Source: an uncultured Chroococcidiopsis sp. (GTDB lineage: Bacteria; Cyanobacteriota; Cyanobacteriia; Cyanobacteriales; Chroococcidiopsidaceae). Taken from it: a stretch of DNA of 64,000 bases. Below the pieces are notes generated by a model, which had not been told where the DNA came from, did not search any database, and was given only the letters and a program-made list of their open reading frames with translations. A program made the position numbers and the translations under genes. Below, in pieces: positions 27,822 to 31,442 of this stretch (within the stretch, counting starts at the first letter, position 1; every line of letters starts with the position of its first letter). The DNA lies in contig CAXTYC010000022.1 of NCBI GenBank assembly GCA_964248365.1, forward strand, positions 17,642 through 81,641, written 5' to 3'.

Positions 27822-27989
27822 GCAAGGCGATCGCCCTCGTTTTTTGCCAATGTCTACTCTTGAACCCGCCTTGGCGTTATGAGTTAAAACAGCAACACCT
27901 AATACCATTTTAGATTTTAGATTTTGGGGACTTTCGATTGAGAAACTCTTGCTGTGAAACACGAGGGCGAACACCCATTTGTAACCTAA

Positions 27990-29305
27990 TGGGACTTAAA
28001 CAAAAGTTAAGATTAAAAAAGGGTATAATGCTATCTCAGCACAGCTTTCACGTTGAAAAAAGCTCATGAAAGAAACCACCCCGTCTCCCATGCTTTGAAA
28101 GATGGTGTCAAAGATTTAAGGAAGCGATGAATTTAAAAGTTTGACCGTGTTTTAGGGTTATCTGTTAGTGGCAATGCGGATCTGTGGTGACGGTCAAACT
28201 TTTATTTTTTGCGCGGTTGTGCAAAGATGATGTCTTTACTCATAAGGCTCAAAAAAGAGAGTTTAGACATTAGACCTCTTGCAAAAGTCAGTCAGGAAGA
28301 CTCTGTTCTTGAGAAATGTAGCTCATAATTATAGAGACCAGCGATGAGATTAAACCGCAAACTAAATCTTTTTCGACGATTTATATAACGGTCTGATAAA
28401 ATTTTAAATACTTTGAGTTTTTGATTAATATGTTCAACTACAACTCTAGCTTTTGCTAAATTTTGATTACTCTTTTTCTCTTCATGACTTAACTTACCTC
28501 CTCTTGGTTTCTTTTTAGGTATCCGACTGTTAACATGAAGCTTTTATATTCCTTGATATCCTTTATCTCCCAGGCATTTAATATCTTGTGTGAGTCGAAA
28601 AATTACTATTTTTAAATATTTTAAAATCATGCTCTTTACCCTTGCCATGAGCCATCCAGATGATTTCACCATTTGCTTGGTTAACCACTAACTGTGACTT
28701 AAATGTATGTTGTTTTTTCTTGCCACTGTAGAACTATTTTTGTTTTTTTTAGGACGTTCTATAGGACGATCTGTAACGTCAATTACTACTACTTTTATGC
28801 TGCCATCATATTTTTTCAGCTTTTTTCTGGAAGAATAAAAGTTCTTGACTGAATCAGAGCGGATTCAACTTTACGGATAATACGATATGCTGTTGACTCA
28901 TTCACTCCCCAAGATTGCCCAATATGAAAATAGGTGCGGTACTCTCTCCAATACTCCATTACATTTGGCGCAAAAAATAAAAATCTTGCTCTCTTTCAAG
29001 ATCTCTCGCTCTCAACCTATAAACCCTAATACAGGGCAAGATTTTTATTTTCAAGCCTTCCTTAATGTCATCAACAGTTGGTCTTCCAATTTCAACTTAC
29101 TGGGCCTACCAGGTGGCTTCTGTGACGGGGGCTTGTTTTATGACTGACATCATTGCTTCAAAAGTCTCAGGTTGCACACCACATAGGCGTTTGAACTCTG
29201 AAGGCGCGACTGTGTTTGACCGCATCGTAGCTCATGGTTTTTGATCTACTTATCTCCCCTTCCCCTACCCTTTTGCAAGAGGTCTATTATTTAGGGGGAT
29301 TATTG
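27990..29305 (+). mobile_element. IS701-family left-end remnant (copy 1) with nested insertions
   Basis: TGGGACTTAAACAAAAGTTAAG end. ATG 28066 gives MKETTP..CFERWCQRF/DDVFTHKAQKREFRH/YLGGLL, split by inserts at 28118-28225 and 28272-29285. Confidence 0.85.
28272..29285 (-). mobile_element. IS5-family element with a decayed transposase
   Basis: 15-bp TIRs AGACCTCTTGCAAAA / TTTTGCAAGAGGTCT and a 3-bp ATT duplication. Fragments FKRLCGVQPETF, YSGKKKQHTFKSQ, DKGYQG and RFSLRFNLIAGLYNYE carry frameshifts. Confidence 0.9.
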
Positions 29306-29399
29306 CGTTAGGATCGGGCATCAGAAAAATTACCAATAGGAGACAACAAGAGGCTTTCACAGGTGTATCAAAAGTTTTGGGCAGTGCAATGAGAGCGAA

Positions 29400-29516
29400 C
29401 TAGTAAATGCGTCGCGTGTTGAAACCGTAACAATTCCCGATGGCACACACTATCTGTTTTTGGAGCGTCCAGAGCGCCGACGAAATCAGTTTATTGAACA
29501 AGTTTCGGCTTTTTCC
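29400..29516 (+). pseudogene. Fragment resembling an alpha/beta-hydrolase C-terminus
   Basis: LVNASRVETVTIPDGTHYLFLERPERRRNQFIEQVSAF resembles a catalytic-His region; no upstream gene. Confidence 0.5.
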
Positions 29517-29723
29517 TTCCATCGGTTGAAAATTGGCAAATTCTCTCATTATCCCCTTATCTTCGTGCCATTCGTTTTAATTCCTAAGAGGTTATTTATG
29601 AAGAAAGCAGGGTTGAGGCAAGAAACTCTTACTATTATAGGAGAATTCTTTTGCAGTATGTTTAATAACAACAATTGCTTACAAGAGTAAACCCGCACCA
29701 GCGAGAATGGTAAAGAGCGCATC

Positions 29724-30536
29724 CTAAAATACTTTAATTTCTTCCTTCCCGTCAATCAAGTCAGAGCCGACGACATAAAAATCTTGCGGATAGATCCAGT
29801 GAGTACCTAGAGGTCCGTGAATTTGAATTCCAGTCATGACGGCATACTTAAATACCGAACAATCCAAAGTATTTAATAGGCTTTTGACATCGTTGGAAAT
29901 AATTCTACAGGCTAATTTTGTCACTTCTACTAAACTAGGTTTATCCCCATAGGTAAGGGTTGAAAGAATTTTCTGCCGAATAATCGTTTGTTCGATATCC
30001 TGCATATCCATTTCTAGTTTTAAATGACCAGATGCCAACTCTTTGACAACTGTTTCTAATGCTCCACAGGCATGGGAAACTTTCTGAACACCATCTCGAT
30101 AGACACTGCCAATATCACCATATCTAGAAATAGCAATATGGGGCATAGCATAGAAGGTAAAACGACGGATTCCATCAACGATAGGGGTATGATCGCATGC
30201 AGCAGCTAACCCAGTTTTCCCCATCATGACGAACCCAGCCAAGCTGCAACAATTAAAGCTTTTCCCCCAATATCTAATTACTTCTGCAAATAGAGGCTCG
30301 GCAATTTCATCCCGACAAATTGCTGTCATTCCCATCGTGTTTTCATCACAAAAACCGTAGGCACTTAAGCTTTGAAAAGTCTTTCTCATGTACTTGCTCA
30401 TGGGTAAGGCTCCTAAAAAGTGAGTAGAGAGCGTTTGATGAAATGCTGGAAACACATTAGGGTCATATCCATTGAGCGTCTGGGGAATAGTTTCACCAAA
30501 TTGATTGACGGGAATCGAATCGGGAATCTGGGTCAT
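29724..30536 (-). CDS. LCIB/LCIC-family (limiting-CO2-inducible, beta-carbonic-anhydrase-like) protein
   Basis: CRDE, SLAG...GKTG, PHIAI and HACGAL motifs supply the Cys/His/Cys zinc ligands characteristic of the LCIB family. Confidence 0.88.
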   Translation of the reverse strand: MTQIPDSIPVNQFGETIPQTLNGYDPNVFPAFHQTLSTHFLGALPMSKYMRKTFQSLSAYGFCDENTMGMTAICRDEIAEPLFAEVIRYWGKSFNCCSLAGFVMMGKTGLAAACDHTPIVDGIRRFTFYAMPHIAISRYGDIGSVYRDGVQKVSHACGALETVVKELASGHLKLEMDMQDIEQTIIRQKILSTLTYGDKPSLVEVTKLACRIISNDVKSLLNTLDCSVFKYAVMTGIQIHGPLGTHWIYPQDFYVVGSDLIDGKEEIKVF

Positions 30537-31131
30537 CTCCTAATTGCTCCTAACTAACTAGTAAAATCCGCTGTTGACTAGGGCGTGGAAGCTAGAACTG
30601 TTGCCGGATTAAAAATTTGAGTTGAGTCTCATTCATATTCAACATCTATGCTTGCCTGAATGACAACCTCAAAGCAACGCTTCGCCAATAATATAGCCTT
30701 AACTTGATACTAAACGCCAACCAAGCGCCTCAAACATTACCCCTACGGACGGAAATAACATAGACAAATGCCCCATGCGTCCCACTTTTAAACTTATGAT
30801 GATTGGTGAACGCGAAAAAAGCTGTGCGAACTGATTTTCCTGATTAAAGACTAATGGTTTTGAGCTTGGCATTACCGTCGAACACTACCTACAACCCTAA
30901 TGTATTGGTTTACAGGCTGGTACTACGCTCTAGTGGTAAAATTAGCTTTATGAGAATAAAACCTTTCTGAATTTACTGCACGATTGCGCTCCTTATTAGA
31001 AGCGATTTGAAACAGGTTTTTTCTCTGGAATTTGGCGACAAAAAAATAGGGAACCTTGAGACCACACAAATCCGCGTTGATACCAACAGACAACCTAAAG
31101 AAGGTTCCCCATTTTTTCGAGCGAGTGCCTC

Positions 31132-31345
31132 CCTCTCACATTCACCCAATAATCCCCTTAAATAATGTCTAAACTCTCTTTTTTGAGCCTTATAAGTAAA
31201 CACATTATGAAATCTTTGACACCATTTTTCAAAGCATGGCGGCATGGCAGCAGGGGTGGTTTCTTTCATGAGCTTTTTTCAACGTGAAAGCTGTGCTGAA
31301 ATAGCATTATATTCTTTTTTAATCTTAACTTTTGTTTAAGTCTCA
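31132..31345 (-). mobile_element. IS701-family left-end remnant (copy 2), inverted relative to copy 1
   Basis: TGAGACTTAAACAAAAGTTAAG end. MKETTPAAMPPCFEKWCQRFHNVFTYKAQKREFRHYLRGLLGE is followed by unrelated sequence. Confidence 0.88.
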
Positions 31346-31442
31346 CTAATTAACTGAAAATGGTATAACTCATACAATGCAAGGTCGGATTAAATCTAGA
31401 ATCTAAAATCTAAAGTCTAAAATTTCTCTAGCCCCAAAAATC

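Follow-up and report, generated by a model that had tools for sequence, protein, structure and literature searches.

Composite transposons such as Tn5 and Tn10 have inverted insertion sequence (IS) copies, of which the outer ends are used. An element of related layout is found in an uncultured Chroococcidiopsis sp., within a 64,000-nucleotide stretch of contig CAXTYC010000022.1 (assembly GCA_964248365.1, positions 17,642 to 81,641 of the forward strand), referred to here as the window. A gene for a 270-amino-acid protein of the LCIB family, known from the Chlamydomonas proteins LCIB and LCIC, lies there in a 3,356-bp block between two copies of CTAA (27986–27989 and 31346–31349), and the left end of an IS701-family element borders each copy. 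Judged from its sequence, the block is likely a non-autonomous composite transposon that reached this site in a single jump. Combined with a protein that would act as a cytoplasmic zinc carbonic anhydrase (CA), buffering CO2, bicarbonate and protons outside the carboxysome and probably first serving as a partner of amino-acid and amine catabolism, this is on balance a probable explanation of the locus.

Like Tn5 and Tn10, the block has related inverted IS ends around a cargo, a single target duplication, and a demonstrable empty site. Unlike them, it is built from IS701-family copies that have each been cut to a left end of ~190–240 bp and contain no transposase, its target duplication is 4 bp long, and its cargo is a metabolic gene rather than a resistance gene. 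No report of IS701 composites in cyanobacteria was found in the literature searched.

The protein shares a domain with Chlamydomonas LCIB and LCIC (PDB 5k5w and 5b5x) and with the diatom protein PtLCIB4 (5b5y) over 214 residues, with TM-scores of 0.63–0.75 for the predicted fold. It has the same Cys/Asp/His/Cys zinc-site motif as these proteins, and the Cys-Arg-Asp-Glu sequence of the Chlamydomonas proteins. It differs from them in being encoded by a stand-alone gene on a mobile block, in a host with no pyrenoid and no paralogue for an LCIB–LCIC-type pair. The protein would be expected to share its chemistry with the CAs and Cup proteins of the cyanobacterial CO2-concentrating mechanism (CCM), such as CcaA, EcaB and CupA/CupB; unlike these, it belongs to a different family and lies outside any ccm, rbc or cup cluster. 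Its homologues also form the C-terminal domain of ~1,720-amino-acid nitric oxide synthase (NOS) proteins of the type of SyNOS from Synechococcus PCC 7335 (PMC6104048, PMC12922734). Unlike in these fusions, the host LCIB protein is unfused, and the host NOS is a broken relic on another contig.

A cyanobacterial LCIB homologue was described by Jin et al., according to a passage of one review (PMC5876011). Theta-CA genes are counted among bacterial toolkits in a section of PMC10880623, and the relevant passages of PMC10096703 and PMC7215798 list theta-CA for algae and not for cyanobacteria.

Probable insertion of the block as a single unit

Several labels are used below. The host genome is G000, of which the window represents contig C22, and C1, C5, C6 and C39 are other host contigs; G001–G011 are related genomes, L-numbers denote homologue or IS loci, P-numbers longer homologous proteins, and X-numbers public sequencing runs, for which 4 of the 16 listed were used. 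The block opens with IS701-family left end A, starting at 27990 on the plus strand, and closes with left end B, ending at 31345 on the minus strand. These inward-facing ends, and the CTAA repeat around the ~3.36-kb block, are present as the initial annotation had placed them.

The insertion interrupts a ~103-bp repeat, of which 87 bp lie on the left (27903–27989, ending with the first CTAA) and 16 bp on the right (31350–31365). When the two flanks are joined at one CTAA, the rebuilt pre-insertion sequence matches an intact copy on the host's own contig C6 (G000:C6:24287-24390) across the junction, over 70 nt at 88.6% identity (E = 4e-19). This copy has a single CTAA at the junction, and the 13 bases past it are identical to the first 13 of the right flank. 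All seven intact copies that were aligned (one in the host, three in G005 and three in G011) run across the junction, and their consensus equals the two window flanks with one CTAA, including all 16 bp on the right, although the CTAA itself varies in some copies. Of 28 genomes of the family, 8 contain the repeat. It carries a heptamer array at its start (27908–27928 in the left part) and is called MITE-like (miniature inverted-repeat transposable element) because of its 9-bp terminal inverted repeats. The split repeat is the decisive evidence, and it strongly supports the proposal of the initial annotation that the block inserted as one unit with duplication of CTAA.

Taken as stand-alone proof of one insertion, the CTAA repeat was rejected, since an independent inward-facing pair of insertions would give a matching repeat with a chance of 0.16–0.20, an estimate for which 30 other ends from the same IS group were used. 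The concern raised in the initial annotation, that the two CTAA copies might mark independent insertions, thus keeps some force as far as CTAA alone is considered; the split repeat argues for one unit.

An empty site with a single CTAA had also been predicted between cbiB and pyrR in close relatives. The two genes lie 42–202 bp apart at 12 relatives' loci and 562 bp apart at one more (in G011, fetched twice); the block is present at none of these 13. In several congeners, cbiB and pyrR are not adjacent. Spacers from congeners could not be aligned to the rebuilt one and were rejected as a direct empty-site match; the target repeat had itself inserted later, which accounts for the failure. The empty site with a single CTAA is represented by the paralogous repeat copy on contig C6. 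No same-species empty allele at cbiB–pyrR was found in the public run contigs, and a 22-base right-flank pattern had 0 matches in metagenome contigs.

A 2,972-nt contig from run X9 matches positions 29327–30994 at ~95% identity (85 differing letters and 26 gaps) and continues into other sequence on both sides. Its match stops at the end-B breakpoint and leaves the IS ends unmatched. Two apparent bridging contigs were discounted: an X9 joint (27927–31400) rests on 21 letters of the heptamer repeat, and an X1 contig reaching into the IS tail overlaps by only 9 letters. No second copy of the composite was found among 76 distinct LCIB loci or in plasmid records, an absence that does not exclude one. 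The NOS relic on contig C5 and the broken glutaminase gene on contig C1 were rejected as donor sites, as they have no DNA in common with the cargo or the IS ends.

The initial annotation had also read two complementary heptamer arrays just outside the block as halves of one former spacer. The arrays are not halves of one repeat, since the left array lies inside the split repeat, whereas the right array (31392–31423, upstream of pyrR) lies outside it. In 9 of 75 cases, such arrays have a partner within 300 bp, compared with 1 of 49 in reverse orientation, a statistic that gives the idea weak support.

The LCIB-family protein

The LCIB gene (29724–30536, minus strand) is the only intact gene within the block, as first annotated. 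Its assignment to the family is confirmed by profile search: the product matches PF18599 with 223 bits (cut-off 25, E = 4e-66) over profile positions 1–222 of 223. Among solved structures, Chlamydomonas LCIB (E = 3e-33) and LCIC come closest, followed by diatom proteins (E = 1e-11 to 1e-14). A structural model built from a 34-sequence alignment (predicted local distance difference test score, pLDDT, of 77; predicted template modeling score, pTM, of 0.80) has eight structure matches at E ≤ 0.001, all of them LCIB-family proteins, with TM-scores up to 0.75 (PtLCIB4). The predicted fold is also distantly like that of beta-CAs, including CcaA (Foldseek E = 7e-3).

Cys74, Asp76, His133 and Cys157 align with LCIB and are invariant in all 34 aligned sequences. 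In a wider set of 57 domains, Cys74 is kept in 56, and the other three residues are kept in all 57. By analogy with beta-CA motifs, these four residues are presumably the zinc ligands. The N-terminus has no hydrophobic stretch and is predicted to be disordered, suggesting a cytoplasmic location. The protein is likely a cytoplasmic zinc CA.

Several points weigh against the overall explanation of the locus. Arg75 is the residue found in Chlamydomonas LCIB and LCIC and in the S47R mutant of PtLCIB4. The host protein also carries private changes, namely a 15-nt in-frame duplication in the N-terminal region and a stop codon 10 codons before that of G005, although several homologues end at the same place as the host protein. 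Its Cys114 occurs in 1 of 57 domains, 43 of which have Thr at this position. The host-specific Thr114-to-Cys change creates GCGATC inside the gene (30196–30201), a sequence that we take to resemble the HIP1 core.

Biochemical reports on the family point in both directions. Three crystallized recombinant LCIB homologues were without CA activity, according to a passage of one review (PMC5876011), which again counts against an active enzyme. PtLCIB3 and PtLCIB4 appear to be constitutively active in a passage of another (PMC9614477), and the title of a 2023 paper cited in PMC13275658 attributes CA function in yeast and Arabidopsis mutants to LCIB.

Distribution and lateral spread

The PF18599 family is rare. 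Within the genus, 2 of 7 genomes have it; the count for the taxonomic family is 2 of 28 (2 of the 21 of high quality) and that for the phylum sample 10 of 401 (~2.5%). The host genome has one match, and the gene is absent from five of six congeners. In G005, the second carrier of the genus, the gene lies on a different contig among transposase remnants (locus L001), and positions 29435–30721 of the window are shared at 86% identity. Synonymous divergence (dS) between the G005 and host LCIB genes is 0.22, compared with 0.51–1.03 in 16 of 22 other gene pairs from the two genomes. In a tree of 57 domains, the host protein belongs to a 23-member clade (support 100) in which several families are mixed. 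Eleven members of this clade are separated from the host gene by dS values of 0.54–0.88, and neighboring genes vary from locus to locus within the clade. On these comparisons, lateral spread of the LCIB gene is the simplest reading.

Two points temper it. The domain tree is a quick version, and in 6 of the 22 baseline pairs dS is as low as for LCIB, all six lying on host contig C39. Between C39 and G005 (L144 and L150), dS is 0.16–0.36 in six of seven gene pairs, far under the genome level, and these low values possibly mark another recently shared island.

Seven queries from the host genome detected transposase matches near host-clade LCIB genes at 2 of 22 loci, so that carriage by IS701 is not general. 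IS630-type pieces adjoin L001, and the IS21 gene istB adjoins L002. At L048:5750-5797, a ~47-bp internally deleted IS701 element with both terminal repeats lies upstream of an LCIB gene of the host clade, at a distance of ~190 bp.

Genomic context and function of homologues

Gene neighborhoods were compared at 99 homologous loci, of which 76 are distinct, with partners counted within 1.5 kb. An NOS gene is fused, adjacent or present as a remnant at 10 of the 76 distinct loci. Glutaminase genes are adjacent at 11 and amine oxidase genes are fused at two, which brings these three partners to 23 loci; cupB is adjacent at one. The 14 longer homologues include six fusions to flavin amine oxidases and five to NOS.

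Globin-type NOS proteins of ~1,720 amino acids with a C-terminal LCIB domain are complete in L038, L032 and L043, and occur also as P0007–P0011. The 1,724-residue protein of L038 (L038:1642-6816) comprises NOS oxygenase, flavodoxin, FAD, NAD and LCIB domains. Broken or partial NOS–LCIB genes are seen in L041, L042, L129 and L008. NOS-linked LCIB domains occupy two parts of the tree, being fused in one clade and accompanied by upstream NOS remnants in the host clade (L008, L011 and L013). In the fusions to flavin amine or amino-acid oxidases (PF01593; P0001–P0006, L185 and L190), the LCIB domain is 68–76% identical to the host protein. A third arrangement is a recurring operon of a MinD/ParA-like ATPase, a glutaminase and LCIB (L019, L021–L026, L030, L033, L036 and L055), and several of these operons continue with DUF6272, a STAS protein and an adenylate cyclase.

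NO synthases, amine oxidases and glutaminases break down amino acids or amines, releasing ammonia, acid or CO2. SyNOS, for its part, turns arginine nitrogen into nitrate (PMC6104048). Because all three partners degrade amino acids or amines, an ancestral role in nitrogen catabolism is favored, and a cytoplasmic role in CO2, bicarbonate and pH balance tied to such catabolism appears, from gene context, to be the most likely ancestral job of the family. For the host protein itself, a role in carbon and pH handling apart from the CCM would have about an even chance. The NOS and amine oxidase fusions are visible in database domain annotations. No description of NOS–LCIB fusions was found in the papers searched, and the word "anhydrase" is absent from the main text of the SyNOS papers PMC6104048 and PMC12922734; figures or supplements of Jin 2016 and Kikutani 2016 may show cyanobacterial homologues or fusions.

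The association with nitrogen catabolism is weakened by several findings. At 52 of the 76 loci, no NO synthase, amine oxidase, glutaminase or cupB partner lies within 1.5 kb, and the glutaminase-linked loci are mostly kin and so not independent. The glutaminase type is common without LCIB, occurring in 69 of 401 genomes (including six of the nine other LCIB carriers); its presence in G005 but not in G001–G004 therefore says little. LCIB is found in 1 of 12 NOS-positive genomes of the phylum sample. The host has no intact NOS and no close amine oxidase (best identity 22–29%), and its glutaminase gene of this type (G000:C1:75287-76249), intact in G005, is broken by frameshifts and an internal inversion. 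The proposed partners are thus gone in the host. Its NOS-reductase relic (G000:C5:1213-1658) lies beside group II intron-like fragments and finds its best DNA match (81%) in the remnant just upstream of the same-clade LCIB gene in L011, a match that counts in favor of the proposed link. No such relic was detected in five congeners, which gave FNR-level matches only.

A possible, though clearly less probable, explanation keeps the same vehicle and has the protein work like Chlamydomonas LCIB, recapturing cytoplasmic CO2 as bicarbonate and so supplementing the CCM of an aerial cyanobacterium. The closest solved relative is indeed Chlamydomonas LCIB and not the diatom enzymes, close relatives occur in urban, air and surface runs, and the host LCIB gene is intact while its NOS and glutaminase partners are broken. 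One homologue, in L027 (L027:3-3660), lies ~100 bp downstream of genes for an ndh membrane subunit and cupB, a further point against a role outside the CCM. However, this is the sole CCM-linked copy among the 76 loci, no other CCM family occurs among the 53 of 95 listed neighbors that were scanned, and no linkage to ccm, rbc, cup or transporter genes is seen in the window region. With four beta-CAs and two Cup proteins in the host (an alpha-CA search of its genome gave no match), its CCM does not obviously need LCIB. Free CA disrupts the cyanobacterial CCM, and a cytoplasmic CA without regulation would deplete the bicarbonate pool, according to passages of PMC5876011. Given this full beta-CA and Cup set and homologues linked far more often to amino-acid and amine enzymes, the accessory carbon-handling function suggested in the initial annotation, if taken as carbon concentration, is so far unsupported.

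A broader proposal, slightly more doubtful still, is that cyanobacterial LCIB/theta-CAs form a laterally spreading accessory of amino-acid nitrogen salvage, fused independently to globin-NOS and flavin amine oxidase, placed in a glutaminase operon, and handling the CO2, ammonia and acid given off by these enzymes. The locus described here would then have caught one such gene in transit on an IS701 composite, once its NOS partner had decayed.

Selection and timing

The ratio of non-synonymous to synonymous divergence (dN/dS) for LCIB is 0.09 relative to G005 and 0.07–0.15 relative to eleven others. The host branch carries 10 synonymous and 6 non-synonymous changes (11 and 9 when unpolarized changes are included), with p = 0.0005–0.001. 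On the assumption that ends A and B began identical and diverged by 3.4% each, ~21 non-synonymous changes would be expected under neutrality, whereas at most nine are seen (P = 0.003). Provided that the ends were identical at the start, this shows purifying selection on the LCIB gene while the ends diverged. The gene is quite probably still under such selection. The earlier suggestion that it was retained while the mobile DNA around it decayed is upheld as far as purifying selection on the host branch is concerned; the timing of that selection is tied to the divergence of the ends and not to the time after the jump. A strain in run X1 with a 96% identical cbiB stops matching at 27904, the start of the target repeat. 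The repeat and block are therefore probably younger than that split, which suggests a young insertion.

It is unlikely, though not to the point of dismissal, that selection preceded the jump, with IS ends that had already decayed being mobilized in trans and the gene simply remaining intact through a recent move. Such a course would fit the two perfect CTAA copies, the youth of the repeat and block implied by the X1 strain, the private changes in the host protein, the broken state of the proposed partner genes, and the lack of LCIB in five of six congeners. It is opposed by the deficit of non-synonymous changes, subject to the same starting assumption about the ends. In addition, the gene has no frameshift or internal stop, whereas all three neighboring mobile pieces took insertions, and 185 bp of upstream DNA moved with it.

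IS701 ends and architecture of the locus

Ends A and B are inverted copies of each other (107 nt, 93% identity). Leaving the inserts aside, 13 of 190 aligned bases differ between the two, and they are regarded as sister copies because they have common changes that are not present in three other IS701 copies. Both are remnants, truncated and interrupted and without an intact transposase. The end B fragment matches the IS701 transposase profile NF033540 over 35 positions (E = 1.8e-6, below the cut-off), and a full-length relative that is 87% identical to end B, L092, reaches 324.8 bits against a cut-off of 150.

The initial annotation's account of IS701 targets, 4-bp duplications at YTAR-type sites, agrees with the wider sample. 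Among 11 IS701-type copies in which both ends can be seen, 8 have matching 4-bp flanks, and of 32 distinct ends in the group, 21 are flanked by TTAG, TTAA or CTAA (targets NTAN/YTAR). Since the left and right terminal repeats of the group are nearly identical, two left ends could pair. In the favored mechanism of a single composite jump, two sister IS701 copies would have flanked the LCIB gene at a donor site, and their outer ends would very probably have been cut and joined to CTAA by IS701 transposase in a geometry like that of Tn5 and Tn10. Loss of the inner IS parts and further insertions into the ends are observed. Both inner borders of the IS remnants (29306–29311 and 30993–30998) are a few bases at most from a YTAR motif, a position that would fit deletion of the inner parts back to the original targets. 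That two IS701 copies instead inserted independently at one CTAA, facing opposite ways, with LCIB DNA later replacing an unstable middle, is highly improbable: the NTAN preference of the group (CTAA or TTAG at 14 of 32 ends), the inner borders without intact right ends and the lack of a composite at any other of the 76 loci would suit it, but it needs two same-site insertions and a separate, traceless capture, ends A and B are each other's closest relatives, and the X9 cargo ends where end B breaks off.

The block lies between cbiB/cobD (26730–27821, plus strand; PF03186, E = 4e-99) and a pyrR-type phosphoribosyltransferase gene (31443–31979, plus strand; PF00156, E = 1e-21), for which we assume the name given in the initial annotation. 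End A (27990–28271, plus strand; ~190 bp of IS sequence) consists of the terminal repeat and the transposase start with an 8-bp deletion. It is interrupted by a ~108-bp hairpin element (28118–28225, plus strand) that is not found in other IS701 copies, and then by a decayed IS5-family element (28272–29285, minus strand) that has terminal inverted repeats and an ATT duplication of 3 bp. A related copy of the latter matches the IS5 transposase profile NF033581 below the cut-off, and the element presumably belongs to the ISL2 group. It holds a second hairpin element (28957–29062, minus strand), which is skipped by relatives' copies and by contigs of runs X1 and X9. The final 17 bp of end A follow at 29289–29305 (plus strand). 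The cargo block (29306–30994), to which the X9 and G005 matches are confined, consists of the LCIB gene and its own upstream and downstream DNA. End B (30995–31345, minus strand) is truncated after ~240 bp of IS sequence and contains a third hairpin element (31023–31132, minus strand), skipped by contigs of runs X3 and X9. Promoter and terminator scans gave results at chance level (4 vs. 5.7 and 2 vs. 1.9, respectively).

The hairpin elements belong to a family of ~105–110 bp with 83 matches across the host genome, characterized by a conserved loop and a variable self-complementary stem. In 50 of the 83, the stem pairs at 14 or more of 16 terminal positions. Ten of the 83 lie in transposase remnants, compared with 9 of 830 random places, and some are in tandem. 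A search of Rfam gave no match for the hairpin elements and one chance match. The public run contigs skip two of the hairpin elements of the window exactly, and these hairpins are therefore insertions.

Implications for LCIB proteins

The composite vehicle is ordinary, being of a textbook kind, and a cyanobacterial LCIB homologue is already in print; the fusion partners of the cargo are an interesting lead. As an example of a composite transposon moving a rare cyanobacterial metabolic gene, the locus is unusually well documented, and the host genome itself keeps the empty site in the form of a paralogous repeat. Biochemical findings on Chlamydomonas-type LCIB are unsettled, and a small stand-alone bacterial protein with the Cys-Arg-Asp-Glu sequence offers an easy test of whether an LCIB of this type has activity by itself. 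Fusion to NO synthase or amine oxidase is a concrete hint at a function of LCIB outside algae. If the proposed link to nitrogen salvage is true, the role of LCIB in the algal CCM would be a later use of an enzyme of nitrogen metabolism.

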